A DNA stretch of 64,000 nucleotides, taken from the IMG/VR virus record IMGVR_UViG_2657245143_000002, positions 24,344-88,343 of that record. One strand, 5' to 3'. This stretch comes from a virus (lineage: Duplodnaviria > Caudoviricetes). A program made the translations under genes and the position numbers. Positions 37,020 through 62,818 of this stretch are shown here, one piece after another (within the stretch, counting starts at the first letter, position 1; each line of letters starts with the position of its first letter). The notes under the pieces were generated by a model. It was not told where the DNA came from, ran no database searches, and worked only from the letters and a program-made list of their open reading frames with translations.

Positions 37020-39851
37020 ATGTCCAACGAGGTTTTGAGGGTCGCCAAGCGCGACGGCCGCACCGTCGCCTTCGACCGCACGAAGATAGCGAACGCCATC
37101 CGGCTGGCGTTCGGGGACGTCAAGAGGGAGGTGGGGCCGCAGGAGGCCAAGGACATCGACGGCATCGCCGCCGGCATCGAGGCCAAGCTGAGGGCCGGGG
37201 ACACGTCGGAGCCCGTCGAGATAGCCGACATCCAGACGCTCGTGGAGCGTGCGCTGGTGGCCGGGCACCACTACGACGTGGCGAAGGCGTACACGGACTG
37301 GCGTCTCGCACGCGACGTCGAGCGGGCGAAGGCCACGGACGTGAACGAGGCGGTGCGGCGGTTCATCGACAGGGACCCGACGATCATGCACGAGAACGCC
37401 AACCGCCCGTCCGAAATCTACATCACGCAGCGCGACCTGCTGGCTGGTGCCGTGAGCAAGGCGGCTGCGCTGAGGATGTTGCCGCAGGACGTGGCGAACG
37501 CGCATCAGAAGGGCATCATCCACTTTCACGACCTTGACGTGTCGCCGTTCACGGCGGAATCTAATTGCAGCCTCGTAAATTTCTGGGACATGCTCGGCCA
37601 CGGTTTCTCACTCGGCGGCTCCGAGATGGACTCCCCGAAATCCATCGGCATCGCGGCCACCCAGATATGCCAGATCATGCAGGAGGTCGCCGTCTCGCAG
37701 TACGGCGGTCAGACGGCCAACCGTCTTGACGAGCATTTGGCCGAGTACGCCAAGAAGGATTTCTGGAAGTTCATGGAGGAGGCCCGCGAGGCCATCCCGG
37801 ATGGCACCACCATCGAGCAGGCCAAGCGCGTCGTCGCGGCGGCGAAGGCCAACGAACCGGCCAGACTCCATTTCGAGCGTGACCGCGAACCGCTGCCGAT
37901 GGATGCGCCGTTCCACGAGGACGCCGACGAACTGACGCGGCAACGCGAAGTCCTCGCCAAAATCCGCACCCGCAAGGCCATCTACGACGCGATGCAGACG
38001 ATGGAGTACCAGATCAACAGCAACAGGGTCGGCAGCGGCCAGACGCCGTTCGTCACCATCGGCTTCGGCCTCGGCACCGACTGGTTCAGCCGCGAGATTC
38101 AACGCTGCCTGCTGCTCAACCGCATCATGGGCTTGGGCCGGCACCACCGCACGCCGATATTCCCCAAGCTGGTGTTCACCGTCAGGCACGGCGTCAACAG
38201 CGAGCCGGACGACCCGAACTACGACATCAAGCAGTTGGCGCTGGAGTGCGCCACGAAGCGCATGTACCCCGATGTGGTGTTCTACGAGAACATCGTCAAG
38301 ATCACCGGCTCCTTCAAGGCACCGATGGGTGCCGTGGCCGGATACTCGGGCATCGTCTGCCGTATTGGCGACAAGGCCCCGGAGGACTTCGGTTTCTCCG
38401 AGTTCTGGCAGTACATGAAGGCTGACTACGGCATGAAGCCACAGGGGACGAACGGCGACGACTGGATGGTTGACATCCCGGAGGAGGCGAACGTCCGCAT
38501 CAAGGACTCCGCCTCACCGGACGGCTGGGCCAAGGTACGCCGCGTCATCTCGAACGCATCCCGCGTCTGGCTTCGCATCTCCACCAAGAACTTCACCGTG
38601 GACTGCACGGACGACCACCCGTGGCCCACCAAGCGGGGCCGCGTCGAGACCAAGGACCTCACGTTGTCCGACGTGCTTTTCGATGCCGAAGGCAACGAGC
38701 AACCCGTCATCGCCGTCAAGCGCGTTGACGTCAAAATGCGCTCCTACGACGTCACCACCTCGACCGACCGCTTCGACGTCAACGGCCTGCGGTCGCACAA
38801 CTGCCGCTCCTTCCTTCAGGGCTGGGTCAACCCGGAGACCGGCGAGGACGAGGAGGATGGCCGCATGAACCTCGGCGTCGTCTCCGTCAACCTACCGCGC
38901 ATCGCCCTTGAATCCAACGGCGACAAGGACCGGTTCTGGAAGCTGCTGGACGAGCGCCTTGAGATCGCCCACCACGCGCTTCAGTTCAGGATAAGGCGCT
39001 GCAAAGAGGCCAAGCCGGAGAACGCGCCCGCCCTGTTCGAGTACGGCGCGTTCGGCCGCCTCAAGCCGGGCGACGACGTGGACGCGCTCTTCCGCAACGG
39101 CAGGGCGACCGTCTCGTTGGGCTACATCGGCATCGCGGAGGTCGTGGCCCGCTTCTACGGCAAGGGCTGGATACGCGACCACTCGTGGGACGAGGATGGC
39201 CGTCGGTTCGGTCTGAGCATCGTCAGGCACATGCACGACAAGTGCGTCGAATGGGAGAGGGCGGAGGGCTACCACTACAGCCTCTACAGCACCCCGGCGG
39301 AGAGTCTGACCGACCGCTTCAACAAGATGGACCGCAGGCTGTTCGGCCGCGTCGAGGGCGTGACGGATCACGACTTCTACACCAACAGCTTCCACTACCC
39401 GGTGTGGCTCCGGCCCACGCCGATGGAGAAGCTCGACTACGAGAAGGACTTCCCGTACTACGCTTCCGGCGGCTTCATCCACTACGCGGAGTTCCCGATG
39501 CTCCAGCAGAACCCCAAGGCCCTTGAGGCGGTGTGGGACTACGCGCACGATCTGGGCATCGGCTATCTGGGCACCAACACGCCCATCGACCACTGCTACG
39601 TGTGCGGCTTCGAGGGCGACTTCGAGCCGACCGAGGAGGGGTTCAGGTGCCCGGAGTGCGGCAACACCGACCCGCTGAAAAGCGACGTCACCAAGCGCGT
39701 GTGCGGGTACCTCGGCTCCCCGGTGGCCCGCCCGATGATTCACGGACGCCATGAGGAGATCGCCCATCGCGTCAAGCACATGAGCGGCGAGACCGGCAAG
39801 GTCACGCTGGACGACGGCACCGAGAGGGAGTGGTTCGAGGAGACCGAGTAG
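37020..39851 (+). CDS. nrdD: Anaerobic (class III) ribonucleoside-triphosphate reductase with intein
   Basis: ATP cone (VAKRDGR), HENAN, HFHDLD, NCSL, PMG|CRS, TPAES, Zn ribbon, RVCGYL glycyl-radical motif. Confidence 0.95.
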   Translation: MSNEVLRVAKRDGRTVAFDRTKIANAIRLAFGDVKREVGPQEAKDIDGIAAGIEAKLRAGDTSEPVEIADIQTLVERALVAGHHYDVAKAYTDWRLARDVERAKATDVNEAVRRFIDRDPTIMHENANRPSEIYITQRDLLAGAVSKAAALRMLPQDVANAHQKGIIHFHDLDVSPFTAESNCSLVNFWDMLGHGFSLGGSEMDSPKSIGIAATQICQIMQEVAVSQYGGQTANRLDEHLAEYAKKDFWKFMEEAREAIPDGTTIEQAKRVVAAAKANEPARLHFERDREPLPMDAPFHEDADELTRQREVLAKIRTRKAIYDAMQTMEYQINSNRVGSGQTPFVTIGFGLGTDWFSREIQRCLLLNRIMGLGRHHRTPIFPKLVFTVRHGVNSEPDDPNYDIKQLALECATKRMYPDVVFYENIVKITGSFKAPMGAVAGYSGIVCRIGDKAPEDFGFSEFWQYMKADYGMKPQGTNGDDWMVDIPEEANVRIKDSASPDGWAKVRRVISNASRVWLRISTKNFTVDCTDDHPWPTKRGRVETKDLTLSDVLFDAEGNEQPVIAVKRVDVKMRSYDVTTSTDRFDVNGLRSHNCRSFLQGWVNPETGEDEEDGRMNLGVVSVNLPRIALESNGDKDRFWKLLDERLEIAHHALQFRIRRCKEAKPENAPALFEYGAFGRLKPGDDVDALFRNGRATVSLGYIGIAEVVARFYGKGWIRDHSWDEDGRRFGLSIVRHMHDKCVEWERAEGYHYSLYSTPAESLTDRFNKMDRRLFGRVEGVTDHDFYTNSFHYPVWLRPTPMEKLDYEKDFPYYASGGFIHYAEFPMLQQNPKALEAVWDYAHDLGIGYLGTNTPIDHCYVCGFEGDFEPTEEGFRCPECGNTDPLKSDVTKRVCGYLGSPVARPMIHGRHEEIAHRVKHMSGETGKVTLDDGTEREWFEETE
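38331..38801 (+). mobile_element. 157-aa mini-intein in NrdD, starting with Ala
   Basis: Insert between PMG and CRSF; block B TDDHPW, block F YDVTT, C-terminal SHN|C; no endonuclease domain. Confidence 0.9.
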
Positions 39852-40000
39852 CGCCTTCCCGGACGGAACGTGCGGTTTCGGAGGTCAAAAACGCGAAAAA
39901 ATCGCGGAAAACGACCCCGGAACCGCACGTTTCCGTTTTTCGGCGTCGAAAAACGCCAGCACAGCCAACCCCGGAAACGAACGAAAGGCAAGGACCGGCA

Positions 40001-40348
40001 ATGGCAGCAAACATGAATTTCAAGGCATCCGACGGCATCACCCTGACCGCCGCGGTGATGGGTCGCATGGGCGCGTTGGAGGAGGACGCCCCCGCGTCGC
40101 TGGTCGAACGGGCGACGGACAAGGCGGTCGAGCTGCGCAAGGCGTTGGAAAGGCACCCCGACGTCATCATGATGGTGATGCCCGGCCTCGGCTTCGCCAT
40201 GCGCGTCGAAGGACACAAGAAGCGCATGATTGCCGAGCTTCACGCCGCAGGAGGATGGGGCACGTTCGCCTCGGACGGCGAGACCAACGAATACGGAACC
40301 GCCGGGGAGATGCTTGACGAGGCGGACGAACAGCTCCGCGAGGATTGA
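40001..40348 (+). CDS. Hypothetical protein
   Basis: MAANMNFK.., RBS and GCACAG motif upstream. Confidence 0.6.
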   Translation: MAANMNFKASDGITLTAAVMGRMGALEEDAPASLVERATDKAVELRKALERHPDVIMMVMPGLGFAMRVEGHKKRMIAELHAAGGWGTFASDGETNEYGTAGEMLDEADEQLRED

Positions 40349-40410
40349 TCTGTCGCACAGCCCACCGCAGCAAAAGCGGTAGGCCTTCCCATATTTGAAG
40401 GAGCTTTCTC

Positions 40411-41769
40411 ATGGTCGATGTCTCTAATAGAAGCCGCGTCCCGGCTGGACGCAGGGAGGGTGGAAGGTTCGCGTCAGAGGCCGATGGACCCTCCGATGGC
40501 GTGGCCGACATCTCCGGCTACGGCGAATACGACGCCACGGGCGTCCGCCACTTCGCCCACCGCTCCGAGGCGGTGGAGGCCGCCCTGCAATCCGACTCGC
40601 CCTGCTACCTCACCGCCTCCGGCGACGGCTTCGACCTCGCCTCCGACCCGACCGAATACAGGGACCCGATCTATGTCCCCTACGATCAGGACGGCGACCT
40701 CGTGACCGAGGAGATCGACTTCGGCGGCAGGCCGCACGACGGCTGGATTGTCAACCCCTACGAGGGCATGGACGGCGGCGACATGCGGCCGGTCAGGGAC
40801 TTCCTCGACGGCAAGGCGGACTCGCTGACGATCAGAAGGGAGACCACCGATTCGGTCATCTGGGGCGACGACGAGGACGAGGACGAGACCTTGGACGGCG
40901 AGACCATCGTCTTGGCGTCGAACAGGCCGCCGGAGACCGCCGTCCGCGAGTCGTTCAAGGACAGGGTGAACGGCTTCGACCGCTTCGAGGCGGCGAAGGC
41001 CGTCTGCGACACGAACGCCACCAAGGCCGAGCTGCACTGGGCCGCCGAGAACGCCAATATCGACGTGGCGGGCCGTCTGGCCGTCTCGACCAACGCCGCG
41101 AGGCTCGACCCGGAGGAGTCCGACCGCCTGCTGGAGAGGGTGCTGCGCTCCGACCGCGAGGCGGCGGGCTTCGCGGTGCAACAGCTCAACCTCCCGGAGG
41201 ACTCCAAGCTGTATCTGGCCGAATCGCCCGACCCCGCGCTGCGTGCGGCGGTCGCCAAGAGGAGGGACCTGCCCAAGGAGGCCGAGGCCCTGCTCATGCG
41301 CGACCCCGACGACCATGTGCGGGCCGCGCTGGTGCCGCATCTCGGGGCTCTCGACATGCGGCGTCTGAAGGACGACCCGTCGCCGCTTATCCGGGAGGAG
41401 GTGGCGCGGCACAAACTGACGTCGTTCGACGCGCTTTCGGAGCTCTCGCACGACCCGAACCGCCATGTGCGCGTGGTCGTGGCGAACAACCCGAGGACGC
41501 CCAAGGCGGACTTGGCCCGCATCGCCAACGACGGGAACGAGAACATCTCCGTGCGGTTGCGGGCCTTGGCGAACGAGTCCACGCCGAGGGAGGCCATCGA
41601 GAGCGTGACCGACCGGAAGCTGGCGACCGCGAGGGCCTACGCGCTTGCGGCCAAGGACCGGGGCATCCACTACGGCGACGCGATTCTCTCGTTGAAGAGG
41701 GAGGACCTGAAGCCCTACCTGCCGAAGCCGTCCGCGCAACCGTTCGAGCCCGGCGACGGGCACTTTTAG
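40411..41769 (+). CDS. Leader-tagged protein 1: tag + acidic domain + LRV repeats
   Basis: RVPAGRREGGRFA; middle domain paralogous to 8681-9145; C-terminal LRV repeats. Confidence 0.8.
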   Translation: MVDVSNRSRVPAGRREGGRFASEADGPSDGVADISGYGEYDATGVRHFAHRSEAVEAALQSDSPCYLTASGDGFDLASDPTEYRDPIYVPYDQDGDLVTEEIDFGGRPHDGWIVNPYEGMDGGDMRPVRDFLDGKADSLTIRRETTDSVIWGDDEDEDETLDGETIVLASNRPPETAVRESFKDRVNGFDRFEAAKAVCDTNATKAELHWAAENANIDVAGRLAVSTNAARLDPEESDRLLERVLRSDREAAGFAVQQLNLPEDSKLYLAESPDPALRAAVAKRRDLPKEAEALLMRDPDDHVRAALVPHLGALDMRRLKDDPSPLIREEVARHKLTSFDALSELSHDPNRHVRVVVANNPRTPKADLARIANDGNENISVRLRALANESTPREAIESVTDRKLATARAYALAAKDRGIHYGDAILSLKREDLKPYLPKPSAQPFEPGDGHF

Positions 41770-41781
41770 AAAGGCGGAGCC

Positions 41782-42732
41782 ATGACACCGCAACCAAGGA
41801 TTCCGGCCGGCAGGCGGGACGGCGGCAGGTTCGCCGCGAACGGCGCATCCGGCCATGCCGTCGATGACCTCGGACCGGACGACGCATACGGGTTCCCGCC
41901 CGAGCCGACCGTGACGCGGGAGGGCACCTACACGACGGTCAGCGGCTCCAAGAGCCACCTGCCCTTGGACACGACCGGCAAGGCGAGGGCCATGCGGGCC
42001 GACGTCGGCGGCCAACCCCGCCGCAAAACGAGCAACCCCGAAGACCTCCTCGGAATGGCCTCCGACGGCATCCAGCCGGACAACCTCAACAAATACCAAG
42101 ACGACTACTATGAAGCCGATTATCGGGAGCTCCCCGACCCCGAGCACCCCCTCGACCTCAAACGCCGCAACATGAGCGGGCGGAACCTCCAAGGCAGCGA
42201 GTTCGCCGCCGCACACATCGCCAACACCAGCTTCAAACACGCCGACCTCACCGGCAGCCGCATGACCGCCGACATCAACCACGCGGACTTCACCGGCGCG
42301 AACCTCACCGCCACCTACTGGGGCACGCAGGCGCTCTTCGACACCAACATGCGATGCGCCTACGTACAAAGCACCTCCTTCCGGGACATCAACGGGGAGG
42401 GCGCGGGATTCCAAGGCTCGCACCTGTCCGACTGCGACTTCACCGACGCCCGCCTGCCGGACGCCTATTTCGAGGCCGCCGACCTCACCGACTGCACGAT
42501 GCGCAACGCGGACCTGACCGGCGCGCAAATGGGAGGCGCCACCATGACCCGCGTCAACCTCACCGGAGCCGACTTGAGCGGCGCGGATATGACCACCATC
42601 ACCGCAGATCAAATCTCATTGGACGATGCGAACCTCAAAGGCACTAGGTTCACCAGCATCGAAGGATTCACCATCGACGGGCGGCAAGTCACCGTCAAGC
42701 AACTTCAAGAGCGTGGCGCACGCCTCGACTGA
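41782..42732 (+). CDS. Leader-tagged protein 2: pentapeptide-repeat protein
   Basis: RIPAGRRDGGRFA; long A[DN]L[TS]G repeats. Confidence 0.85.
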   Translation: MTPQPRIPAGRRDGGRFAANGASGHAVDDLGPDDAYGFPPEPTVTREGTYTTVSGSKSHLPLDTTGKARAMRADVGGQPRRKTSNPEDLLGMASDGIQPDNLNKYQDDYYEADYRELPDPEHPLDLKRRNMSGRNLQGSEFAAAHIANTSFKHADLTGSRMTADINHADFTGANLTATYWGTQALFDTNMRCAYVQSTSFRDINGEGAGFQGSHLSDCDFTDARLPDAYFEAADLTDCTMRNADLTGAQMGGATMTRVNLTGADLSGADMTTITADQISLDDANLKGTRFTSIEGFTIDGRQVTVKQLQERGARLD

Positions 42733-42776
42733 CCAGTATGGGAACGGTAGAAGACGGACAGTTAGGAGAACAACCC

Positions 42777-42935
42777 ATGAGACCGTATCGCATCGCCAAC
42801 CCGGAACTGGCGCAAGCCATGCGGGAGAAACGCCGTTCCGGCGCATGTCTGCCGTATGACAGCCGCCCGCACCGGGAGCGGTCGCGCGCCGACGCCAAGC
42901 GCGCCGCCATCAAGTGGAGCATGGCAACCGCGTGA
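42777..42935 (+). CDS. Small basic phage-type protein
   Basis: AMREKRRSGA..RSRADAKRAAI; AGGAG RBS. Confidence 0.55.
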   Translation: MRPYRIANPELAQAMREKRRSGACLPYDSRPHRERSRADAKRAAIKWSMATA

Positions 42936-42969
42936 ACAGCTTTGATTGAAACGATTGAAAGGAAGCGGT

Positions 42970-44097
42970 ATGAACAATGCGAACGACAGGGCTAGGGTCC
43001 CCGCAGGAAGGCGGGAGGGAGGCCGGTTCGCCCCGGAGGACCACGGGACGGAGACCGCCACGGAGCTGGGCGACGCCACCGAGTACGTGACGATGGGCGA
43101 CGTCGGCTCGTATCCGAGCGACGTCAACCGGTTCGTGACGAACGACCAGCTCGCCAAGCGCAAATCGGAGCTGTTCGAGGAGTGGCAGGAGGCCGCCGAC
43201 AGGGCCGTGGACAGGTGGCCCGCCTCGATGCCCACCGACGTGGGTGCCATGTCCGTCATGGAGGGCGCGTTGAACGAGGCCCGCATGAGGAAGGACCCCG
43301 AGTGGGACGGCTGGGACGAGGACACAGCCCCGCACGTCACCAAGGAGGAGCTGCGCGAGGCCATAGGCGACATGGCCTCCGAGGAGGACACCTTCGAGAC
43401 CAACGACCTCATGGAGCGGATGCTGCGGGAGCCGAAGGACCGCGACGACCTGCTGTCCTCCGTGTACACCACCGGCAGGCCGGAGGGCAACATCTGCGGC
43501 GACCGCTGGGAGGACCGCACCGCCCTGTTCGACTCCGCGAGGGACGTCGCCGTGAACGGCACGCCCGCCGACATCGAATCCGACCCGCTGGCGAGCGCCA
43601 TTGCCGACGCCGCGAGGGAGTCCGTGGGCGGGGAGGCCACGGACGAGGACTACCTCGGCTGCGTCGGCGCGATGGAATACGGCGACGACCCGCATCTCTC
43701 CCGGATGGTCGATGACGAGATCGAATCGCTGCGGCAGGACGAGATCGGGAACCTGAAGTCCGCCAAGATCGAGACGCCCGTGGTGGCGTTCGGCAGGGCC
43801 GGGCTTTGGAACGGCAGCGCCGACAACGGCGCGTTCATCGACGCGGACAGCGTGGGCACCCTTATCGGGAACGGCGACCCGTACTCCGGCATGGACGGGT
43901 CCAGTTGGAGCGTGGACGCCCGCAACGAGCTGGTCTGGCACGGCACCCACCACGACGGCTCGAACACGGTCGTGTTCAGGAGACTCAGGCCGGACGTGAC
44001 CCGCGAGCAGGCGGAGGCGATGACGCCCGACGAGCTGGTGTCTCAGGGCACGGTGCCGCTCGGCGGCGCGGTGGTCGGCGTGTACGGCATGCCGTGA
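42970..44097 (+). CDS. Leader-tagged protein 3: very acidic hypothetical
   Basis: RVPAGRREGGRFA; D/E-rich body. Confidence 0.8.
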   Translation: MNNANDRARVPAGRREGGRFAPEDHGTETATELGDATEYVTMGDVGSYPSDVNRFVTNDQLAKRKSELFEEWQEAADRAVDRWPASMPTDVGAMSVMEGALNEARMRKDPEWDGWDEDTAPHVTKEELREAIGDMASEEDTFETNDLMERMLREPKDRDDLLSSVYTTGRPEGNICGDRWEDRTALFDSARDVAVNGTPADIESDPLASAIADAARESVGGEATDEDYLGCVGAMEYGDDPHLSRMVDDEIESLRQDEIGNLKSAKIETPVVAFGRAGLWNGSADNGAFIDADSVGTLIGNGDPYSGMDGSSWSVDARNELVWHGTHHDGSNTVVFRRLRPDVTREQAEAMTPDELVSQGTVPLGGAVVGVYGMP

Positions 44098-44112
44098 CGT
44101 CGGCAGCAGCAC

Positions 44113-44142
44113 AGCCCAAGTCAGCGATGGCTTGGGCTTTTC
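44113..44142 (+). terminator. Terminator-like hairpin overlapping GCACAG motif (near-identical unit at 45613-45640)
   Basis: AGCCCAAGTC/GGCTTGGGCT followed by TTT; second copy AGCCCAAGTCG/CGACTTGGGCT followed by TTT. Confidence 0.65.
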
Positions 44143-44159
44143 CTTTGTGAGGAGGCTTT

Positions 44160-44933
44160 ATGAGTGGCAACGACCAACCCCGCGTCCCGGCGGGCCGCCG
44201 TGACGGCGGGCGCTTCGCCGCGGCCGATTCGGACGTGCGCGTGGACGACCTTGCGCCCGAACCGGCGGCCAACCGTGGGGGCGCGACGCCCGGCAGGGCC
44301 GCCGAAATCCTGTTCCCCGTGGGCATCCGTGGGGACAACGACGTGCAGGCCGAGCTGAGGGAACTTGCGCCGGGGGTCTTCGCCAAGGCGTTCGCGGACA
44401 GGCCCGACATCGGGGTCTGGCCGGGAGGCAGGGACGGCGTGGCGACGTTCGACTCCACGAAGCTGGGCGGCGACGTCACCGTGGAGGCGCGGAACCACGC
44501 GGACCCGATGGGTTCGGGCCGCGACTGCCTCGACGTGCTGTACTCCGACGGCGGGGAGCTGGAATACATGCGCTACGACATTGGCGGGGACCCGGCCAAG
44601 GGCCTTGCCAAGGCCGCGCGGGACATCGAGGCGAGGCTGGAGCCGTTCATGCGCCGCGAGCGCGAGCGCGTGTGGGCCTCCGTGGAAAGGGTCATGGATT
44701 CCGGCGAGGTGGCGGGCGGACTGGTGACGTACCGCAACGAGGTCGGGCCGAACGGCGACGTCGCCTACAGGCCGCTGGTCTCGCTCGACGGCGGTGCGAC
44801 CGATGCCGAGCGGGGCGACGCCGTGCGGAAGGTGTACGAGGCGATGCTCGACGCGGTGGCGGACATGGGCCGGAACGGCTGGAGGTCGCTGAGGCCCGTC
44901 TACCCCGAGATCGCCCGGAAGAACGGAAGATAA
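44160..44933 (+). CDS. Leader-tagged protein 4: hypothetical
   Basis: RVPAGRRDGGRFA; GGAGG RBS. Confidence 0.8.
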   Translation: MSGNDQPRVPAGRRDGGRFAAADSDVRVDDLAPEPAANRGGATPGRAAEILFPVGIRGDNDVQAELRELAPGVFAKAFADRPDIGVWPGGRDGVATFDSTKLGGDVTVEARNHADPMGSGRDCLDVLYSDGGELEYMRYDIGGDPAKGLAKAARDIEARLEPFMRRERERVWASVERVMDSGEVAGGLVTYRNEVGPNGDVAYRPLVSLDGGATDAERGDAVRKVYEAMLDAVADMGRNGWRSLRPVYPEIARKNGR

Positions 44934-44943
44934 GGAGTGCAAC

Positions 44944-45594
44944 ATGGCAGAGAACGACAGGGCTAGGATTCCGGCGGGCTACAGGAACGGCGGGCAGTTC
45001 GCCCCGGAGAGCCACGCCGCCGCAGGCTTGGTGTCCGACATGGCGTCGGCCGGCGAGTATTCGGAGGCCGAGGCGTCCGTCAGATCGCCGGAGCGGTTGG
45101 CCTACGACGGCATCGAGGTGGATTCGCCCGGCAGGATGTACGACTGGGCGAACGGCGTCGAGGGCGAGCTTCAGTCCATCGCCGCTTGGAACTACGCGCA
45201 CAGGGACTCGGCCTTCGAGCCGGGCATGGAGGCGTACCACCTCGGCAACCCGAGCTGGGTGACGCAGGAGCAGATGAAGGCGGTCACGCGGGACGACCCT
45301 TTGGTCCTCGACCGGTATCTGGTCACGGTCAACGGCTGGCTCGACCGGGGCGAACGCGACGGGAACGGCGTCACCGGCAGGGAGCGCGAGGCGTTCGACC
45401 ATTGGGACGACGCCGCATGGTGGGCCGAACAATCCGAACAGATGTTCGACAGCGACGACGGCGTGCCCGACGAGGGCAGCTACCTGACCGAACTCGACCC
45501 CGACGAGATCGACCTAGGCGACTACGACGAGTGCTATTCGGATTCGCCGGAGCGACTGGCGGAGACGGCGCGGAGGTTCGGTCTGGAGTCCTGA
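44944..45594 (+). CDS. Leader-tagged protein 5: very acidic hypothetical
   Basis: RIPAGYRNGGQFA; AAGGAG RBS. Confidence 0.8.
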   Translation: MAENDRARIPAGYRNGGQFAPESHAAAGLVSDMASAGEYSEAEASVRSPERLAYDGIEVDSPGRMYDWANGVEGELQSIAAWNYAHRDSAFEPGMEAYHLGNPSWVTQEQMKAVTRDDPLVLDRYLVTVNGWLDRGERDGNGVTGREREAFDHWDDAAWWAEQSEQMFDSDDGVPDEGSYLTELDPDEIDLGDYDECYSDSPERLAETARRFGLES

Positions 45595-45656
45595 AATCCG
45601 CACCATCAGCACAGCCCAAGTCGGCAACGACTTGGGCTTTACCGTAAGGAGGAATC

Positions 45657-46565
45657 ATGGCGACGGATGGCAGGGCGAGGGTTCCCGCAGGACGACGCGA
45701 AGGCGGGCGGTTCGCAAACGAAAACAGGGAGACCGCGACGTCGGTCTCCGATCTGGCCGGCGGCGAGTACGCCCCTGAAAAGGCGAACCCGTATGCGGAC
45801 GGGCTGCCGGAGAAGCCGGCTTGGCTGCCGATGGACTCCGACATCGAGGACACCGAGGCCAACCGGGAGTCGCTGCTGTCCCTCGCGCAGGACCACGCCG
45901 CCTACTACGGCGAACCCGCGTGGGCCAACACGGTCTCCGTGGACGACCTCGAATACAGCGCACCGGAGCTCTACGGGAAGTGGATGGCCTCGGACGACTA
46001 CGACCCGGACGCCGACACCCTGCGGCCCGACGACTACGGCTCCGGCTATCAGGCCGTGGACCATGAAACGCTGCTCAATGACGCTTGGCACATGCGCTCC
46101 GACATCGTTCAGGAGGCATACGACGAGGACGTGGACGACTTCACGGGCGGCGGCAGCGCGGAGTCGCTGGCCGCCATCACCACGGCGAACGGCCTGACCG
46201 TCGGGGAGCGCGAGCGCCGCATGGCGAAGGTCGCGGCCCTGCCGGATGACTACGAGATGGAGTGGGGCACCCCGACCATGCTCGACGGCACCAAGGGCGA
46301 CGGCTATGTGTCCGACGTGCTCGACTGCGAGGGCGGCGAGCCGGTGCCCGACCGGGGCTGGGAGGTTCTGAGGGGCCACCGCAGCCCCTACGTGTCCGGG
46401 CCCGACAACGGCGTGTTCTCGCCGGACGAGGACGCCTCCGGCAGGCAGATTCTCGGCTGGGCGGTGGCCGGGGGCTACGACGAGGCGGCGCTGTGCGAGG
46501 TCGATGACGAGAACGGCGAGCCTGTCGGCTGGTGCGTGCAGGTGAGGAGACCCGATGGCCGGTAA
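45657..46565 (+). CDS. Leader-tagged protein 6: very acidic hypothetical
   Basis: RVPAGRREGGRFA; AAGGAGG RBS. Confidence 0.8.
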   Translation: MATDGRARVPAGRREGGRFANENRETATSVSDLAGGEYAPEKANPYADGLPEKPAWLPMDSDIEDTEANRESLLSLAQDHAAYYGEPAWANTVSVDDLEYSAPELYGKWMASDDYDPDADTLRPDDYGSGYQAVDHETLLNDAWHMRSDIVQEAYDEDVDDFTGGGSAESLAAITTANGLTVGERERRMAKVAALPDDYEMEWGTPTMLDGTKGDGYVSDVLDCEGGEPVPDRGWEVLRGHRSPYVSGPDNGVFSPDEDASGRQILGWAVAGGYDEAALCEVDDENGEPVGWCVQVRRPDGR

Positions 46566-47139
46566 GCAGGCGAGGGTGCCGAAGGGCCGGCGCGAGGGCG
46601 GCAGATACGCCCGCACGCTGGGCGAGGCGTACGCGGCCACCGCCGATCTGGACGACGAGTACGAGGACGGGGTTCCGCTCCATGCGTCCGACGACGGAGG
46701 GGATGGCCCCGCGTGGAGGCCGCTCAAGTACTACGACGGCTCGTATGAGATCACGGGTGCCAAGGTTATCGACCCGAGACCGCTTGCCGACCGCATCCGC
46801 GGCTGGCTCGACGCCAAGCTGAAGGGCGACGACACCGGCAACCCCTACTGCCGCGACGGGCGGCGCTACCGCAGGGTCGTGGGGGTCAGGGCCTCCGCGC
46901 ACCGGAGGTGGCTGGCCGACCGCGAGCGCTCCGCGAACGGCGGCGAGGAGGCGTTGAGACGCGCCGCAGCACGCCAGCGGGCCGAGGCGGCCGCCGAACG
47001 CGAGGCATGCGAACGCGCCCACGACCCGTTCCACGGGCTGTCGGACGACGAGCGCCACGCACGCATGACGTGGAGCCTCCACGAGGAGGCCGTCGCCCGT
47101 GGCGACACCGAAAACCCCTTCTACGACATGAACATCTGA
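46555..47139 (+). CDS. Leader-tagged protein 7: hypothetical
   Basis: RVPKGRREGGRYA; overlaps the previous stop. Confidence 0.8.
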   Translation: MAGKQARVPKGRREGGRYARTLGEAYAATADLDDEYEDGVPLHASDDGGDGPAWRPLKYYDGSYEITGAKVIDPRPLADRIRGWLDAKLKGDDTGNPYCRDGRRYRRVVGVRASAHRRWLADRERSANGGEEALRRAAARQRAEAAAEREACERAHDPFHGLSDDERHARMTWSLHEEAVARGDTENPFYDMNI

Positions 47140-47324
47140 ACTTGGAGGACAACGTGGAAGACACGAGACCCTTGGGCATCACGCCGTTCGGAATCCCGGA
47201 CGACAAACTCTATGAGGCGTTGCGCCGGTGCGAGACGAGGAACCGCGACCGGGGCCGGATAACGGGCTGAGGCACAGCCACGGACGTAAAAGTCCGTGGC
47301 TTTTCTCTTATAGGAAGGATTCCG

Positions 47325-47450
47325 ATGATTCACGAAGACAGATGGAAGAGCACCAGCGAGGCGCTGGATGGATTGGCTGACGAGCGGCACGGAAAGCTGC
47401 GCGAGCGCCTTGATGGCGCGACGGCGGATTGCGACGCCGAGGAGGGCTGA
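47325..47450 (+). CDS. Small hypothetical peptide (41 aa)
   Basis: AGGAAGG RBS; ends just before the next ATG. Confidence 0.35.
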   Translation: MIHEDRWKSTSEALDGLADERHGKLRERLDGATADCDAEEG

Positions 47451-49410: not shown

Positions 49411-49495
49411 GGAGGATTGGCAGAGCAGACTAATGCACCCGTCCCGAAAGCGGGCAGGGGTCAGACCCTCGCGCGTGCAAATCGCGCATCCTCCG
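49411..49495 (+). tRNA. tRNA-Ser(CGA)
   Basis: GGAGGAT/ATCCTCC acceptor, CCCGT-CC CGA AA-GCGGG, long variable arm, atypical T-loop TGCAAAT. Confidence 0.8.
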
Positions 49496-49514
49496 CTCGG
49501 ATAATTGAAGATCG

Positions 49515-49596
49515 GGTGGGTTGGCCCAGCGGCGACGGCAGGAGCCTGTAAATCTCCGACACTGACACATCGCGGGTTCGAGTCCCGCACCCACCA
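49515..49596 (+). tRNA. tRNA-Tyr(GTA)
   Basis: GGTGGGT/ACCCACC acceptor, CT GTA AA loop, GTTCGAGTC T-arm. Confidence 0.85.
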
Positions 49597-49599
49597 CGA

Positions 49600-49707
49600 G
49601 GACGGAATGGACAGTCCCCGGCACGCAAGTAGTTCCCGAATGGGAGTAAGGCAGGTGGCCCGTGCGCGGGCGCTCGGCCGAGAAGACCGAAAGCGCCGGT
49701 TCCGTCC
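49600..49707 (+). ncRNA. Unassigned structured RNA of about 108 nt
   Basis: Terminal helix GGACGGAA/TTCCGTCC enclosing GCACG/CGTGC, TTCCC/GGGAG and GGCGC/GCGCC helices; no cloverleaf. Confidence 0.45.
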
Positions 49708-49734
49708 GAGGCCGGTCGGCGCACAGACCGGATT

Positions 49735-49808
49735 GGCCCGGTAGCTCAGTCGGCTAGAGCAGTTGGTTAACACCCAACCGGTCGGACGTTCGAGTCGTCC
49801 CCGGACCA
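49735..49808 (+). tRNA. tRNA-Val(AAC)
   Basis: Canonical D-arm, GTTGG-TT AAC AC-CCAAC anticodon arm, GTTCGAGTC. Confidence 0.8.
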
Positions 49809-49811
49809 CGG

Positions 49812-49884
49812 AGGCACTTAGCTCAATCGGCAGAGCACCCGTTTGAAAGGCGGGAGGTTGCGCGTTCAAGCCGCGCGGTGCCCA
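49812..49884 (+). tRNA. tRNA-Phe(GAA)
   Basis: TAGCTCAATCGGCAGAGC, CCCGT-TT GAA AG-GCGGG, GTTCAAGC. Confidence 0.8.
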
Positions 49885-49887
49885 CCG

Positions 49888-49958
49888 GGGGCGTCCGTAT
49901 AGGCGGACCAACGGCCTTGCTGGGCTGCTGGTGCCACGTTCGATTCGTGGGGCGTCCA
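49888..49958 (+). pseudogene. Degenerate tRNA-like sequence
   Basis: Intact T-arm CCACG-TTCGATT-CGTGG and plausible acceptor stem; irregular D-arm and anticodon loop. Confidence 0.4.
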
Positions 49959-49959
49959 C

Positions 49960-50032
49960 TCCCGGATGGCGTAACCGGCAACGCGCCGCGCTTTGGACGC
50001 GGAGACCGAAGGTCCGAACCCTTCTCCGGGAA
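49960..50032 (+). tRNA. tRNA-Gln(TTG)
   Basis: TCCCGGA/TCCGGGA acceptor, CCGCG-CT TTG GA-CGCGG, T-loop TCCGAAC. Confidence 0.8.
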
Positions 50033-50157
50033 CTTGGCGGGCGCAGTCGCATGGCAATGCGGTTGCGACCGGACGGGGCTTTGGTGCGCCTCCGCCAAGG
50101 AAGCGCCATGTCCGCCACGAAGGTGCCCGGCTTGCAAGCGGGCGGCCGGCGGACGAT

Positions 50158-50228
50158 ACGGGTCAGGTCCAACGGCAGGACGGCGGTCTCCAAAACCGCA
50201 GACGGGTGTTCGACTCTCCCGGCCCGTG
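50158..50228 (+). tRNA. tRNA-Trp(CCA)
   Basis: GCGGT-CT CCA AA-ACCGC, GTTCGACTC. Confidence 0.8.
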
Positions 50229-50232
50229 CGAA

Positions 50233-50307
50233 GCTCCCAGCCCAACAGGTAGAGGCGGCGGCTCAAGGAGCCGTTCAGTTTCGGTCCGAATCCGAAGGGG
50301 AGCACCA
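50233..50307 (+). tRNA. tRNA-Leu(AAG)-like, short variable arm, slightly irregular 5' part
   Basis: GCTCCC/GGGAGC-ACCA, GCGGC-TC AAG GA-GCCGT anticodon arm. Confidence 0.55.
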
Positions 50308-50356
50308 GCCGCGCGTCGAGACGGAGTTTTCCAGATGAACAAATACGCGCGGCCCA

Positions 50357-50433
50357 GCCCAAGTGGCGCGGCAGGATAGCGCGGTCGCCCCCGAAGCGAC
50401 AGGCCGTCGGTTCGACTCCGGCCTTGGGCACCA
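50357..50433 (+). tRNA. tRNA-Arg(CCG)
   Basis: GCCCAAG/CTTGGGC-ACCA, GTCGC-CC CCG AA-GCGAC, GTTCGACTC. Confidence 0.8.
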
Positions 50434-50485
50434 GCCGCGCGTTGTCGATGAAATTTCCCCAGATGAAAGGATACGCGCGGCCTTT

Positions 50486-50561
50486 GCCGTCGTAGTTCAA
50501 TGAGCAGAACACCGCACCCGTAATGCGGAGGCTGCCGGTGCAAAACCGGCCGACGGCTCCA
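50486..50561 (+). tRNA. tRNA-Thr(CGT)
   Basis: GCCGTCG/CGACGGC-TCCA, CCGCA-CC CGT AA-TGCGG, atypical T-loop TGCAAAA. Confidence 0.8.
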
Positions 50562-50914: not shown

Positions 50915-52005
50915 ATGGTTGCATCCAATAGCGCGAAGGGCGGCTTCAAGGGGCTGGCCGCCACCGTCGGCACCCTGTTCGTGGCCGTCTGCTGCGTCAT
51001 AGTATTCATCGTATCGGGGATGTGGTCCGGCGTGAGCGACCTCGCCAACCGCATCGCACCCGGCTACGGCGGCAACGGCACCACCGACGTGAACGCCGTG
51101 CCGGAGGCCATGCGCGGCACCGACGCCACGGGGCATTCGCTGCGCAGCGTCCTTGACGAGCTCGCCTCGACCCCGGCCACAGGCTCGATGACCCCGCAGC
51201 AGACCGAATCCCTGCGTCAGGCGCTCGACAAGCTGGACTCGCAGGCGGCCGGCGACCCCGCGAAGGCCACGAAGACCGAATCGCTGAGGCAGCGCCTCCG
51301 GTCGATTCTGAACCAGCAGCGGGCCAAGCAGTCCGAAGGCAAGGCGGACACCGCCGACGACGGGCGGAAGACGCACCAAGATGCACCGAAATACACCGAT
51401 GTGTACGGCGGCGACTGGAGCCTCGCCATCGCGGACCTCGACACGCTGAAGGTCGTCAAGGCCGAACCGCAGGGCTACGACCGCGACAAGCGCTTCCTCT
51501 CCTCGTGGGGCGACGCCGAGATCGAGGGCTGCGATGCCAAGCCGAACAAGGCCACGACCCGCGACCTCATACTCAGACGCGACCTGACCGACACGAAGCT
51601 CGACAAATACTGCCGCGTCGTCTCCGGCACATTGGACGACCCGTACACCGGCAGGAAGATCGCTTTCACGCGCGGCAAGCACAGCGCGGACGTCCAGATC
51701 GACCACCGCGTCAGCCTCGTGGAGGCATGGGCGCTCGGAGCCGACGAATGGACGGACGAACAGCGCAACAGGTTCGCCAACGACCCCGCCGAGCTCGTCG
51801 CCTCGGACGGCCCCGCCAACATGGAGAAATCCGGCGGCTTCGACTTCGACGCGAAGAGCGACCCCGTGTGGCTCCCGTCCAACAAGGCGTATGCGTGCCC
51901 TTACCTCGCCTCGCGTGTGTCCGTGAAGAAGACCTACGGCCTCGGCGTGACCGAGGCGAGAAGGCCCAGACCGAACGCGAGCTGCAAGGCTGCATCGCGG
52001 GGTGA
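50915..52005 (+). CDS. Membrane-anchored DUF1524 (His-Me finger) extracellular nuclease; probable frameshift near 51955
   Basis: TRDLILRRDL..DPYTG..VQIDHRVSL..AW..FANDP..N.EKS..WLP.N; C-terminus EKAQTERELQGC lies in another frame. Confidence 0.8.
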
Positions 52006-52011
52006 TTCTTC

Positions 52012-52725
52012 TTGGCGAAGCATGCTGACACGACCTTGAGGAGACGCAGGGCGTTCGCCGCCCTGCTTCTGACACCCCTGCTCGCGCTTGCCGCGGGCAC
52101 CGCCTGCGTGGCGGCGAACCGGCCACCAGCCGTGGCCTCCGCGACCGAGATGTCGGACTTCGACGGCGACGGCCCGCAGCAGACCAAGACGAGGCCCGCC
52201 GACGCCGCATCCCGCTCCAGCGAGAGGACGCCCGTGGGCGGCGGCTCGTGGGACTTGGGCGACGACATCGACGCCGAACACCTCACCCGCATCATGGCGC
52301 ACAACGACAAGGTGTCCGCGATGATCGACGCGGACGGCGACGCGGTGCCCACGGACTTCGACCCGAACCACACGGTCGAGGACGTCGGCAACATGTACGC
52401 CGCAGCGAACTGCACTTGGGGCGCATACGAGAAGCGGCACGAGATGGGGTTGCCCGTCTCCTCGTGGCTCGGCAACGGCGCGGACTGGTACGACAGCGCC
52501 AAGGCCGAGGGCTACTGGGTCGGCACGCAGCCGAGGCATGTGGGCGACATCATCTCGTTCAAGCGGGGCCAGTTCGGCGCATCGGCCGTCTACGGGCACG
52601 TCGCGGTCATATCCAAGCTGGACGGCGACGGCTCGTTCGAGACCATCGAGATGGGCGACGGACGGTGGTTCTCAAGGCACTTCACCGCCGAGCAGGGAAG
52701 GACGCTCAGATACGTCTACTTCTAA
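52012..52725 (+). CDS. Secreted CHAP-domain amidase
   Basis: NCTWGA..LGNGADW..GDIISF..YGHVAVI. Confidence 0.85.
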   Translation: MAKHADTTLRRRRAFAALLLTPLLALAAGTACVAANRPPAVASATEMSDFDGDGPQQTKTRPADAASRSSERTPVGGGSWDLGDDIDAEHLTRIMAHNDKVSAMIDADGDAVPTDFDPNHTVEDVGNMYAAANCTWGAYEKRHEMGLPVSSWLGNGADWYDSAKAEGYWVGTQPRHVGDIISFKRGQFGASAVYGHVAVISKLDGDGSFETIEMGDGRWFSRHFTAEQGRTLRYVYF

Positions 52726-52908
52726 ATGGTCTCCGTTCGTGGTGCTCCGGTTGCTGGAAAAGCAGGAAAATCTCACGCATACATCCGGTTTCCACCGGTA
52801 ATTGACCCTGCAATCGGTCATCGCACCCCAATTAAAACCGAAAATACGGCAATCCGCGCCATGCCCTCCATAGAAGGTCAGACCGAATGTCACGAAAGGA
52901 AGACCACG

Positions 52909-53295
52909 ATGGCATCGCAAGAATCGGAGACCAAGCTCCACGACTGGTTCCTCAAGTCCGCTCAGGAAGCCTTGAAGACCCGTGAGCCCGGCTGTTGGTA
53001 CCACGTTCTCACAGATCAGGGCTCTTGCTACCCGAATGACACATGGGCGCTTGCGATAGGCTGGCTGCCGGACGAGGAAGCGCCGGACGGATATTCCGCT
53101 TACGCCGGCGTCGTATTCCAACCGGTGAACTCCATCATGCAGTGCGACCTTGATGTGGACTGGCAGATGCCGGTTCTCGACAATGGTGAGGTTGACGACA
53201 CCGAGACCTGCATCGAGGGCTTGTCGGTCGGTGGCCTCGAATCCACGTTCGACTGGCTGCTCAAAGTAGCCGAGTCCTACGGGTTGACGGCTTGA
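52909..53295 (+). CDS. Acidic hypothetical protein
   Basis: AAAGGA RBS and motif A upstream. Confidence 0.6.
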   Translation: MASQESETKLHDWFLKSAQEALKTREPGCWYHVLTDQGSCYPNDTWALAIGWLPDEEAPDGYSAYAGVVFQPVNSIMQCDLDVDWQMPVLDNGEVDDTETCIEGLSVGGLESTFDWLLKVAESYGLTA

Positions 53296-53376
53296 GATTT
53301 CCAATAGGAGGCTCCCGGCGCGGAGGCATTGCACAGTCTTAGTCGAATGAACGAACCCTCAAGATGGAGGCGCAAC

Positions 53377-54177
53377 ATGAAGCCGATTCCCGACATGGGG
53401 CTTTTCTTCCGCACCGAGGTGGGCAATCTGGTCGCGGACAACGAGTACTGGGCGACCCTCGTGGGAGGGGAGACGGCACCGAACCCGTCGCTGGTGGCGG
53501 TCACGCCCAGCGCCTCGGTCCCGGTGCCGGACTACTCCGCCTACGGCGAGGAGCACGACCGTTCGCTGGCCCTCTACCAGTTGCCGTACCCGTATCTGCC
53601 ACCCGTGGCTTGGGGAAGGCAGTTGGGCGAGCCGATGGCCGTCTACCAGACCCGCGTGCTGATCGAGCTCGCCATGCTCGACCTGCTCTCCGTTGACCCG
53701 GCGAGCCGCCGCTTGCAGGCCGTCGCCGTGGTGGACGCCGACACCATCACCTCGCAGGGCGAGCAGGCCGCCGCTTGGCTGGGCGGCGGGGACTGGGACA
53801 CCGGCGACCGGCTCGCCAAGGCGTTCGACGCCCGTTTCGCGGCCACGTTCGCCAACGGCGACGGCGACCAGAGCAAGGTGGGTCTGGCCGACCTCGTTCC
53901 GCTGAGCCGCGAGATCGCCTCCCGTGGCGAGGACGCCTCGCTGGCGATGATGGTCCGCAACATCGCGGTGCATGCCAAGGCGGGCGAGGACGTGTCCGGC
54001 GACGTCGCCGTGCTGTCCTACTGGATACCTGAGCTGCCCGGCATGAAACCGGACGACATGCTGGAGGACTGGCGCGGGCACGCCGACGAGACCCGCGAGT
54101 ACATCGGGTTCCTTCAGGACCTCGGGTTGCAGGCCGAGGGCAGCGTCGAGACGCTTGACGCCGCCGACATGGACTGA
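53377..54177 (+). CDS. Hypothetical protein
   Basis: GGAGG RBS; GCACAG upstream. Confidence 0.65.
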   Translation: MKPIPDMGLFFRTEVGNLVADNEYWATLVGGETAPNPSLVAVTPSASVPVPDYSAYGEEHDRSLALYQLPYPYLPPVAWGRQLGEPMAVYQTRVLIELAMLDLLSVDPASRRLQAVAVVDADTITSQGEQAAAWLGGGDWDTGDRLAKAFDARFAATFANGDGDQSKVGLADLVPLSREIASRGEDASLAMMVRNIAVHAKAGEDVSGDVAVLSYWIPELPGMKPDDMLEDWRGHADETREYIGFLQDLGLQAEGSVETLDAADMD

Positions 54178-54192
54178 CCTCTTCCACAAAAG

Positions 54193-54222
54193 AAAGACCA
54201 CCGTTTCGCAACGGTGGTCTTT
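54193..54222. terminator. Bidirectional terminator
   Basis: AAAGACCACCGTT/AACGGTGGTCTTT. Confidence 0.7.
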
Positions 54223-54228
54223 TGTCGC

Positions 54229-55173: not shown

Positions 55174-55308
55174 AATCCGCCTTTCGACGGAGCCCGCATG
55201 GCGCGGACTCCACCGTGGGCTGTCCGGCAGGCCGTTCGCACAGTCCATGCCGAAAGGTCTGCCGGACCGTCTGTGCGCGTCAGCGCCTTCCGGCAGGAGT
55301 CAACCGCT

Positions 55309-58571: not shown

Positions 58572-58749
58572 AAAACGAACGGCGGAAACACGCATATGAA
58601 AAAGGGGCTCCCCGAAAGGAACCCTTTCTGCGACGTGAACAGCTGAACTTGGAGGACAACATGGACCCGAGACCCCTTCGGAAGCCAAGGCCACGGTTCC
58701 GGGTTCCCCCGGTCGTGGCCTTTTCCATCGCTCGCTTGGAAGGCGGATT

Positions 58750-59601: not shown

Positions 59602-59641
59602 AACGCGCTTTGCCGCGAGCTGTTGTTAGACTGTTGCCATT

Positions 59642-60907: not shown

Positions 60908-60908
60908 G

Positions 60909-61778: not shown

Positions 61779-61882
61779 CGGAGCATTTCTACAGAGCGCT
61801 CGAAGGTGCTGGCTATGCGCTGGACTGCAATATCGTCAACCAACTGGTCACCGGCCTGTCCTATGGAAGGCAGGCCGGTGAC

Positions 61883-62497: not shown

Positions 62498-62526
62498 GCC
62501 GCTGTAGCACCCGCACAGGCTAAGGC

Positions 62527-62748
62527 ATGACAAGCCATATCGAGGAGCCGCCGTTGCGCGACAGACTGACCCTGACCGTGCCCGAAGCCGGGGCGCTCTC
62601 CGGCATACCCGCGAGGGTGGTGAGGGCCGCCGTGCTCAACGGCGACATGCCCGCCTGCTACGCGGGCTCCACGACCATGCGCATCCGCCGCGCTGATCTG
62701 GACGAGTGGGTGGCGAACCTGCCGGTTGACCCGCCGACGCCCAAGTGA
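62527..62748 (+). CDS. xis: Excisionase-family HTH protein
   Basis: LTVPEAGALSGI..VR..G.MPA..RIRRADLDEW. Confidence 0.8.
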   Translation: MTSHIEEPPLRDRLTLTVPEAGALSGIPARVVRAAVLNGDMPACYAGSTTMRIRRADLDEWVANLPVDPPTPK

Positions 62749-62771
62749 CACAGGAGGCGGGCGATATGCGA

Positions 62772-62807: not shown

Positions 62808-62818
62808 ATATATAAGGA

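Follow-up and report, generated by a model that had tools for sequence, protein, structure and literature searches.

A bipartite N-terminal tag on unrelated proteins of actinobacterial mobile elements probably labels cargo that travels with DNA

We analysed a 64,000-nucleotide stretch of DNA (the window; positions 24,344–88,343 of IMG/VR record IMGVR_UViG_2657245143_000002, a contig of 88,343 bp that is a fragment of a Bifidobacterium mobile element) in which seven tandem genes encode proteins that share a short N-terminal tag and little else. The tag recurs on other plasmid-type elements and in phage proteins, and it probably labels proteins that travel with mobile DNA. Our preferred explanation, to which we give a probability of roughly 45%, is that cargo is marked for hand-over together with DNA by the tag, acting as a bipartite N-terminal leader, with a type IV secretion system (T4SS) as the simplest route on this element. 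Such an address or docking leader is favoured because of the position of the tag, selection on the peptide, its lineage-specific half, its restriction to elements with one family of transfer genes and the exchange of cargo behind it.

We confirmed the seven open reading frames (ORFs) on the plus strand, spanning 40411–47139 (Table 1), and found an eighth tagged protein of 590 amino acids encoded on the same contig 45 kb upstream, outside the window (L002:895-2667). In all eight proteins, a core of the form R-[VI]-P-[AK]-G-x-x-x-G-G-[RQ]-[FY]-[AT] begins at residue 6–9, and R, P, G and GG are invariant in the eight-sequence alignment of this 13-residue core (R-x-P-x-G-x3-G-G-x-[FY]-[AT]). A second element, hydrophobic-x-[DE]-[LIM] (VADI, VDDL, TELG and similar), follows 8–11 residues past the core. 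The strict pattern occurred eight times in the 88,343-bp contig, each time 6–9 residues past a start codon with a Shine–Dalgarno sequence, compared with a mean of 0.18 (maximum 2) in 200 mononucleotide shuffles and 0.13 (maximum 3) in 200 triplet-block shuffles. When the eight proteins were compared pairwise past residue 45, blastp detected similarity at E < 1e-3 in 0 of 28 pairs. Coordinates, alignment and cargo comparison thus confirm the claim of a first-pass annotation, made from the sequence alone, that seven genes share an N-terminal motif and then continue in unrelated sequence; the second element that it had noted (VADI/VDDL type) was likewise found.

Pairwise differences across the 13 core codons comprised 181 synonymous compared with 78 non-synonymous changes, and arginine was encoded by both CGN and AGR codons. 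Given this synonymous excess and the switching between arginine codon families, selection acts on the tag peptide and not on the DNA, as the annotation had proposed. The first 40 residues, read from the alignments, are rich in Arg, Gly, Asp and Glu and contain no hydrophobic run. A Sec or Tat signal is ruled out by the absence of a hydrophobic core from the leader, which bears out a further point of the annotation. No Pfam or NCBIfam model covers the tag, and no PDB chain matched the tag profile at E ≤ 10.

The tag is also found on other plasmid-type elements. With 8,000 candidates from 5.8 billion proteins scored, a broadened profile (A4) gave at least 2,092 matches at E ≤ 0.001. Among the 120 matches listed, all were named 'hypothetical protein' save one JGI label, on a polyvalent protein of the kind described below (P0016); only eight carried a Pfam domain (DUF7007, DUF2958, type IB topoisomerase, portal/MuF/Zeta protein), and the motif was N-terminal only in 116 of the 119 that came with a sequence. 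On known plasmids, we observed 36 profile matches on Pseudarthrobacter chlorophenolicus pACHL01 and one on Curtobacterium plasmid D40, and none on the Bifidobacterium breve megaplasmid pMP7017 or a Bifidobacterium longum plasmid (CP143940). We also counted matches to the strict pattern, with 'N-terminal' meaning 3–12 codons past the start codon. There were 46 on pACHL01 (45 N-terminal, the remaining one spanning stop codons), seven, five and two on contigs of GTDB genomes (G002:C6, G003:C36 and G004:C24, respectively) and eight on the Bifidobacterium contig, those on the last four being N-terminal without exception; pMP7017 and the half of G197:C2 that was searched (100–201 kb) had none. The tag therefore starts 3–12 codons past the start codon in 67 of 67 genuine strict matches on plasmid-type elements. 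Cargo similarity past residue 45 was detected in 4 of 561 pairs among 34 tagged proteins (8 from the contig, 25 from pACHL01 and 1 from D40).

Tagged gene 6 gave no match in plasmids by tblastn and no confirmed match in viral and metagenome contigs, and a word-based search with residues 1–40 of its product returned only its own cluster, which at 90% identity holds 112 members. In viral contigs, tag profile A2 gave 47 pattern matches, none of which was confirmed, and the exact back-translated tag pattern gave none. DNA nearly identical to the array was not found in plasmid and phage collections.

On pACHL01 (NC_011879.1, L039-L060), the bases 5′ of many tagged genes translate to AAHKxGM, and the ribosome-binding region is conserved in the DNA too. 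Tagged genes on this plasmid lie in long same-strand runs, for example at 16–26 kb, 45–51 kb and 201–224 kb. One of them encodes a 345-residue protein (L056:17317-18354) with a weak match to Sigma70_r2 (E 0.0042, below the cut-off). Unlike most cargos, that of the 345-residue protein is conserved on G002:C6 (E 7e-28) and G003:C36 (E 5e-24), and it may be a core tagged protein.

Comparison across elements divided the tag into two halves. All lineages and the phage proteins share the first, in which G-G-x is invariably followed by F, Y or W; the core is kept across Bifidobacterium, Micrococcales, Propionibacteriales-type and Acidimicrobiia-type elements. Each element has its own form of the second half, shared by its tagged proteins: AxxxHxEPxVxL on pACHL01, xxKSTAEAxLxL on G002, ESxLxL on G003 and VxDL in Bifidobacterium. 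Because the second half is uniform among paralogues whose codons vary freely at synonymous sites, and diverges between elements, the pattern points to co-evolution with one element-encoded reader rather than to gene conversion. We also considered a clamp-binding motif and rejected it: the tag is unlike the consensus QL[SD]LF, and pACHL01 has no DnaN in common with the Bifidobacterium element.

We observed the core in a second setting, within multi-domain phage proteins. A profile of the eight tags, searched against 1.84 billion representative proteins, gave 85 matches at E ≤ 0.001. The motif was N-terminal only in 16 of these (kin of the window proteins and a few other actinobacterial proteins), whereas 67 contained internal copies and 55 contained 2–8 copies spaced 150–400 residues apart. 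All five internal-copy proteins that we scanned were multi-domain, with domains of the ART-PolyVal, GNAT, ART-exotoxin-like, NUDIX, Zeta-toxin or pyridine-nucleotide oxidoreductase type; a phage portal domain opens two of the five, and one has Phage_Mu_F as well. The motif, often with a Gly-rich spacer behind it, stands before each module, and in P0001 every copy is followed by such a spacer and then a domain. The scanned proteins are the polyvalent proteins of Iyer et al. 2017 (PMC5512222), which combine two to fifteen disparate domains in one polypeptide and which, in phages and conjugative elements alike, were argued to enter the new host with the invading DNA. The same paper discusses proteolytic processing of head-packaged proteins, such as DdrB and DarA of phage P1. 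The tag motif is absent from its main text, and its supplementary alignments may show it.

On plasmid-type elements the tag occurs together with one family of transfer genes, that of the VirB4-like ATPase encoded by the contig. An alignment search located this ATPase family in six GTDB genomes, and all five of those searched for tags (G001-G005) had them, with 6, 9, 10, 9 and 38 matches at E ≤ 0.1; most of these lay on the ATPase-bearing contig, several within a few kilobases of the ATPase gene. As a control, we sampled 301 genomes from the same class and scored 25 candidates in each; the tag was found at E ≤ 1e-4 only in the centre genome, and the ATPase only in the centre genome and G197. 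No credible tag was present in G197 (best E 0.055). In sum, tags were present in 8 of 11 carriers of the VirB4-like ATPase family (this contig, pACHL01, Curtobacterium D40 and G001-G005, with pMP7017, B. longum CP143940 and G197 free of tags) and in none of the 299 sampled non-carriers. An association between the tag and the VirB4-like/FtsK-like gene family, for which the annotation had proposed a profile search and a test of co-occurrence, was therefore found.

Additionally, we found natural exchange of the cargo that stands behind the tag. In four runs, each from a different study and recorded as animal gut or dung metagenomes, contigs match 39800–47400 at 95–99% identity, except that all four have a different stretch of 414 letters in place of 42006–42950, which covers the cargo part of gene 2 and the following spacer. 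Among the 24 sequencing runs listed, none was an RNA run, which carries no information on expression. One protein (P0021, from a cluster of 92 of which one is named B. bifidum) equals the gene 2 product only over residues 1–88 and then differs, and another (P0010, from B. apri) joins a tag like that of gene 1 to the pentapeptide cargo of gene 2. Together, the metagenome replacement and these two proteins indicate that the leader and about 55 further residues, 75–88 N-terminal residues in all, are retained while the cargo is replaced. The exchange joint lies past the tag, for which reason we dropped a recombination junction as an explanation of the tag.

In the explanation that we favour, tag plus cargo would be a mobile unit, solo on plasmid-type elements and concatenated in phage head proteins. 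The leader would consist of a universal first half (R-x-P-x-G-x3-G-G-x-aromatic) and a lineage-specific second half (acidic, then hydrophobic-x-L, 7–10 residues on). On the Bifidobacterium element and on related megaplasmids and integrated elements of actinobacteria, it would dock each cargo to one shared receptor encoded by the element. Cargo would then be handed to the newly entered cell with the DNA or just before it, most simply through the VirB4/FtsK-type conjugation machine of the element, and the leader might be clipped at Gly-Gly during or after hand-over. In phages, the same units would be strung in one polypeptide that is anchored to the portal or MuF head protein and rides in the capsid. 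Solo and concatenated units would thus share a common context, since both would concern proteins that accompany DNA into a new cell. We infer the docking, receptor, transport, cleavage and cargo functions as parts of this explanation. A wider version is possible but doubtful, namely that actinobacterial conjugative megaplasmids and integrated elements, those of gut Bifidobacterium among them, inject up to dozens of proteins into recipient cells under one universal N-terminal code that the effector modules of phage heads also use.

Several observations weigh against a leader of this kind. Known T4SS signals are C-terminal or internal and charge-based, and one at the N terminus would be out of the ordinary. 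In phage polyvalent proteins the core occurs although no T4SS is present, which suggests that the receptor need not be the coupling protein, and it precedes every module when one address per polypeptide would be enough, a pattern that fits a cleavage site at least as well. The three tag-free carriers of the ATPase show that the transfer machine does not need tagged cargo. As to the co-occurrence, G001-G005 were found by way of the ATPase, and profile A4 was built from this contig and pACHL01, which therefore match by construction. On the contig, the gene for the FtsK-like ATPase is split by a frameshift at L001:8312-10206 (contig positions upstream of the window): relative to a 631-residue homologue (P0242), residues 1–155 map to 8312–8776 at 100% identity and residues 157–631 to 8779–10203 in another frame at 98.7%. 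The split could be an assembly error or mark a disabled transfer gene.

The hunt for a partner also counts on this side. We profiled 57 ORFs of the contig and 423 of pACHL01 by tblastn against six element sets, several of whose contigs are partial, and in this small and partly fragmentary sample found no gene restricted to tag-bearing elements. The common core, comprising the VirB4-like and FtsK-like ATPases and proteins of 321, 388, 791, 1046 and 1083 residues, is also present in the tag-free pMP7017, and the nearest partner candidates were ordinary (an SNF2 helicase, a PD-(D/E)XK nuclease and an HNH nuclease). The portable label of the first-pass annotation is thus supported in part, by peptide selection, recurrence elsewhere, lineage-specific halves, co-occurrence and cargo exchange.

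One alternative is that the tag is a processing site, at or near whose Gly-Gly a protease would cut, separating the modules of polyvalent proteins and removing a short propeptide from solo proteins; in the latter, the cut might perhaps activate the cargo or expose an aromatic, destabilizing N terminus that limits its lifetime. This would account for a core before every module in the 55 multi-copy proteins, one per 150–400 residues, for the Gly-rich spacer and domain behind each copy in P0001, and for the invariant Gly-Gly-x-aromatic (F, Y or W), and it has a precedent in the cleavage of head-packaged P1 proteins discussed in PMC5512222. We nevertheless consider it unlikely. A pure separator would have no job at the extreme N terminus of single-domain proteins, yet the tag is conserved there in dozens of paralogues per element; partner profiling identified no protease gene that co-occurs with tags; and the second half, differing by lineage, speaks for an element-specific partner, which might, however, be a protease. 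An N-terminal F, Y or W would fit the bacterial N-end rule. Address and processing roles can be combined, as they are in the leader of phage T4, which the prohead protease cuts off once packaging is done. Distinctly unlikely, in our view, is a short linear motif that recruits cargo to one hub, such as the incoming DNA, the replisome, RNA polymerase or a chaperone, with no transport involved. Conjugative-type elements and phage heads have delivery machines that share little but the same destination, a freshly invaded cell, and the core that they have in common is rich in Arg and Gly; the conserved pACHL01 cargo with the sub-threshold Sigma70_r2 match and homologues on G002 and G003 would also suit recruitment. 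A conserved host hub, however, would not explain a second half that differs by lineage, and a general cellular motif would not be missing from the chromosomes of the 299 sampled genomes. Nor does any solved structure contain the tag, and the eighth tagged protein gave no sigma-factor match; its only matches were of low complexity (to eS6).

It is quite improbable that the tag serves the donor cell as a control handle (a degron or an N-terminal coding element) by which all cargo genes would come under the same post-transcriptional or proteolytic control. Such a handle would belong at the beginning of the reading frame, where all plasmid-type copies lie, and the recurrent AAHKxGM with its conserved ribosome-binding region on pACHL01 and the tight packing of the array (gaps of 10–12 bases and one 11-base overlap, between genes 6 and 7) would agree with shared control. 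An RNA element is hard to reconcile with the synonymous variation in the core, copies inside polyvalent proteins could have no part in translation initiation, and nothing in our tests points to a protease adaptor. Least probable, and by our estimate very much so, is a functionless relic, that is, a conserved junction left behind when cassettes were exchanged time and again or inherited by common descent. Cargo is indeed exchanged past the N-terminal 75–88 residues, but the joint lies about 55 residues past the tag and not within it; the core has been kept across distant lineages and phage proteins while all else diverged beyond recognition, and the excess of synonymous over non-synonymous changes speaks against loss of function.

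We compared the tagged proteins with known systems. Polyvalent proteins resemble them in being encoded by mobile elements and in having the core before their modules (ART-PolyVal, GNAT, NUDIX, Zeta toxin and portal/MuF fusions), and the element of the window proteins carries VirB4-like and FtsK-like ATPases, a primase, DnaN, an integrase and a tRNA array. By contrast, the window proteins have a single cargo each, and these cargos lack matches to polyvalent domain families in Pfam, NCBIfam and PHROGs. In logic, the tag can be likened to the capsid-targeting sequence (CTS) by which phage T4 directs diverse internal proteins into the scaffolding core of the prohead; these proteins are delivered with the DNA and have in common only a short, conserved leader at the N terminus (PMC3012670). 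Both stand on unrelated, clustered genes with variable cargo; unlike T4, the Bifidobacterium contig (an estimated 41% complete) has no match to a capsid, portal or large terminase and instead has VirB4-like/FtsK-like transfer genes. Signals of T4SS substrates likewise mark unrelated proteins, and the tags co-occur with one VirB4/FtsK-type gene family; the tag differs in being N-terminal with a defined Gly-Gly-aromatic core, and three carriers of the ATPase family are tag-free. Double-glycine leaders end in Gly-Gly, with conserved hydrophobic positions upstream and a C39-peptidase ABC transporter nearby. The tag has a Gly-Gly too, but one followed by conserved residues, and its cargos are 190–450 residues long.

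We found no description of the tag in the literature on polyvalent proteins, MuF and polymorphic toxins, capsid targeting, and Bifidobacterium and Arthrobacter megaplasmids, and the main texts of PMC3482391, PMC5576092 and PMC10832533 do not mention the motif. The statement of the annotation that no description was known thus holds for the literature and family libraries searched. The survival of a plasmid or phage in its first minutes is decided by proteins that enter the cell along with the foreign DNA; few of these are known, and sequence does not allow them to be predicted. A tag on about 2,000 uncharacterized proteins would give a direct handle on them: if the wider version holds, proteins delivered with the DNA could be read from sequence across plasmids and phages, and the lineage-specific second half would identify the matching receptor. 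The tag would also lead to a large pool of candidate anti-defence or take-over factors, gut bifidobacteria included, would link the cargo logic of plasmids to phage polyvalent proteins and could become a tool for delivering chosen proteins. Should the tag prove to be a site of processing, it would still account for the assembly and disassembly of polyvalent proteins.

The contig that carries the array is classed as a provirus in IMG/VR, with a CheckV completeness estimate of 41%. No match to Phage_capsid, Phage_portal or TerL_ATPase was found in these 88 kb, and no virion family among the ORFs scanned against the libraries. The contig encodes a VirB4-like AAA_10 ATPase, a DnaN clamp, a surface protein and an integrase, together with a primase-like protein, HNH endonucleases, a transposase, a methyltransferase, NrdD, a Pif1-type helicase, a GmrSD_C protein, an Enc34-type single-stranded-DNA-binding protein, a CHAP hydrolase and an LPXTG pilin-like protein. 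Its FtsK-like ATPase weakly matches a solved 'DNA translocase coupling protein' (E 0.0042), and the pACHL01 homologue of this ATPase matches Pfam FtsK_SpoIIIE (E 8.6e-9); a 791-residue 'VirD4-like' ORF had no PDB or Pfam match. Named close relatives of the tagged proteins occur only in Bifidobacterium (B. apri and B. bifidum), in clusters of 92–112 near-identical members on contigs of up to several hundred kilobases. The best annotated match of the VirB4-like ATPase is on pMP7017 (30.9% identity over 94% of the protein), and the next are on megaplasmids of Pseudarthrobacter, Arthrobacter, Paenarthrobacter and Curtobacterium. On the strength of these relatives and matches, we regard the contig as a fragment of a conjugative-type megaplasmid or integrated element of Bifidobacterium, of which pMP7017 is only distant kin. 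The two have VirB4-like and FtsK-like ATPases, a CHAP hydrolase, a GmrSD_C protein and large unknown proteins in common, and pMP7017 also carries a tRNA array (PMC10832533). It lacks the tag, however (no profile candidates and no strict matches), and since identities of the common genes are only 24–47%, the Bifidobacterium element belongs to a different element family.

The seven genes of the array (Table 1) have GC content at third codon positions (GC3) of 0.85–0.93, typical for true genes in DNA of 65% GC, and a Shine–Dalgarno-like GGAGG or AAGGA a few bases 5′ of each ATG. For gene 3, the first in-frame start is a TTG at 42946, but the ATG at 42970 is likelier, as it has a Shine–Dalgarno sequence and the homologue P0007 begins at the same Met. 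Each protein consists of one tag and one cargo region, 194–452 residues in total, with at most one type of Pfam domain. Searches of Pfam, NCBIfam and PHROGs found repeats in the products of genes 1 and 2 and no family in those of genes 3–7. Six of the seven cargos have an isoelectric point (pI) of 4.05–4.96. The cargo description in the annotation was thus correct for the LRV and pentapeptide repeats and for the acidity of six cargos. Its further suggestion of DNA-mimic or anti-defence cargo is consistent with the acidity of those six and with the one pentapeptide-repeat protein; nothing else that we found speaks for it. AlphaFold2 models made without alignments had a mean predicted local distance difference test (pLDDT) score of 35.8 for gene 6 and 50.2 for gene 4 (residues 1–63 below 50), too poor for fold comparison and saying nothing firm on disorder of the tag. 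The best ESM Atlas scores were 0.78–0.83, which are leads only; an LPD28 cluster at rank 5 (0.80 and 0.78) fell under the level at which a match means anything.

Table 1. Features of the tagged array, in window coordinates.
Feature	Position	Strand	Description
Tagged gene 1	40411..41769	+	452 aa; tag core 40435-40473; LRV/HEAT-like repeats; Pfam LRV E 3.2e-6; GC3 0.92
Tagged gene 2	41782..42732	+	316 aa; tag core 41797-41835; pentapeptide-repeat cargo; Pfam Pentapeptide E 1.2e-29
Tagged gene 3	42970..44097	+	375 aa from ATG 42970; tag core 42994-43032; acidic cargo, no family match
Terminator-like hairpin between genes 3 and 4	44113..44138	+	consensus scan only
Tagged gene 4	44160..44933	+	257 aa; tag core 44181-44219; cargo without family match
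Tagged gene 5	44944..45594	+	216 aa; tag core 44965-45003, variant RIPAGYRNGGQFA; very acidic cargo, pI 4.09
Promoter-like box TCCGCNCCATG, one-mismatch copy just 5′ of gene 6	45597..45607	+	element-wide box
Tagged gene 6	45657..46565	+	302 aa; tag core 45678-45716; very acidic cargo, pI 4.05; overlaps gene 7 by 11 bases
Tagged gene 7	46555..47139	+	194 aa; tag core 46573-46611, variant RVPKGRREGGRYA; cargo rich in Arg and acidic residues, pI 6.59
Terminator-like hairpin 3′ of array	47276..47301	+	consensus scan only

The box TCCGCNCCATG recurs along the element, with 25 matches (at most one mismatch) at 2864–55207 of the window compared with a shuffle mean of 8.7 and maximum of 16. Its copies lie mostly 5′ of genes, for example before nrdD (36959) and, as listed in Table 1, before tagged gene 6. 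NrdD (37020–39851) is matched by its Pfam model in two stretches, which is consistent with an insertion. Eight tRNA genes (Ser, Tyr, Val, Phe, Gln, Trp, Arg and Thr) occupy 49411–50561, directly past the gene for the Pif1-type helicase, and a transfer-messenger RNA call that overlaps them looks spurious. Past the tRNA array, at 50915–57186, are the GmrSD_C-domain protein and the CHAP hydrolase, both with pMP7017 homologues, and the LPXTG-anchored pilin-like protein of 990 residues. The end of the window (57238–64000) holds the transposase (PHROG E 2e-107), the DNA methyltransferase and a tyrosine integrase, which fits an element that is integrated or able to integrate. The VirB4-like ATPase is much longer in the B. 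longum plasmid (1439 residues) and Curtobacterium D40 (1218 residues) than elsewhere (785–925 residues), and also much longer in G005 (G005:C45), where the match falls in two pieces, which suggests that the long genes carry insertions such as inteins.

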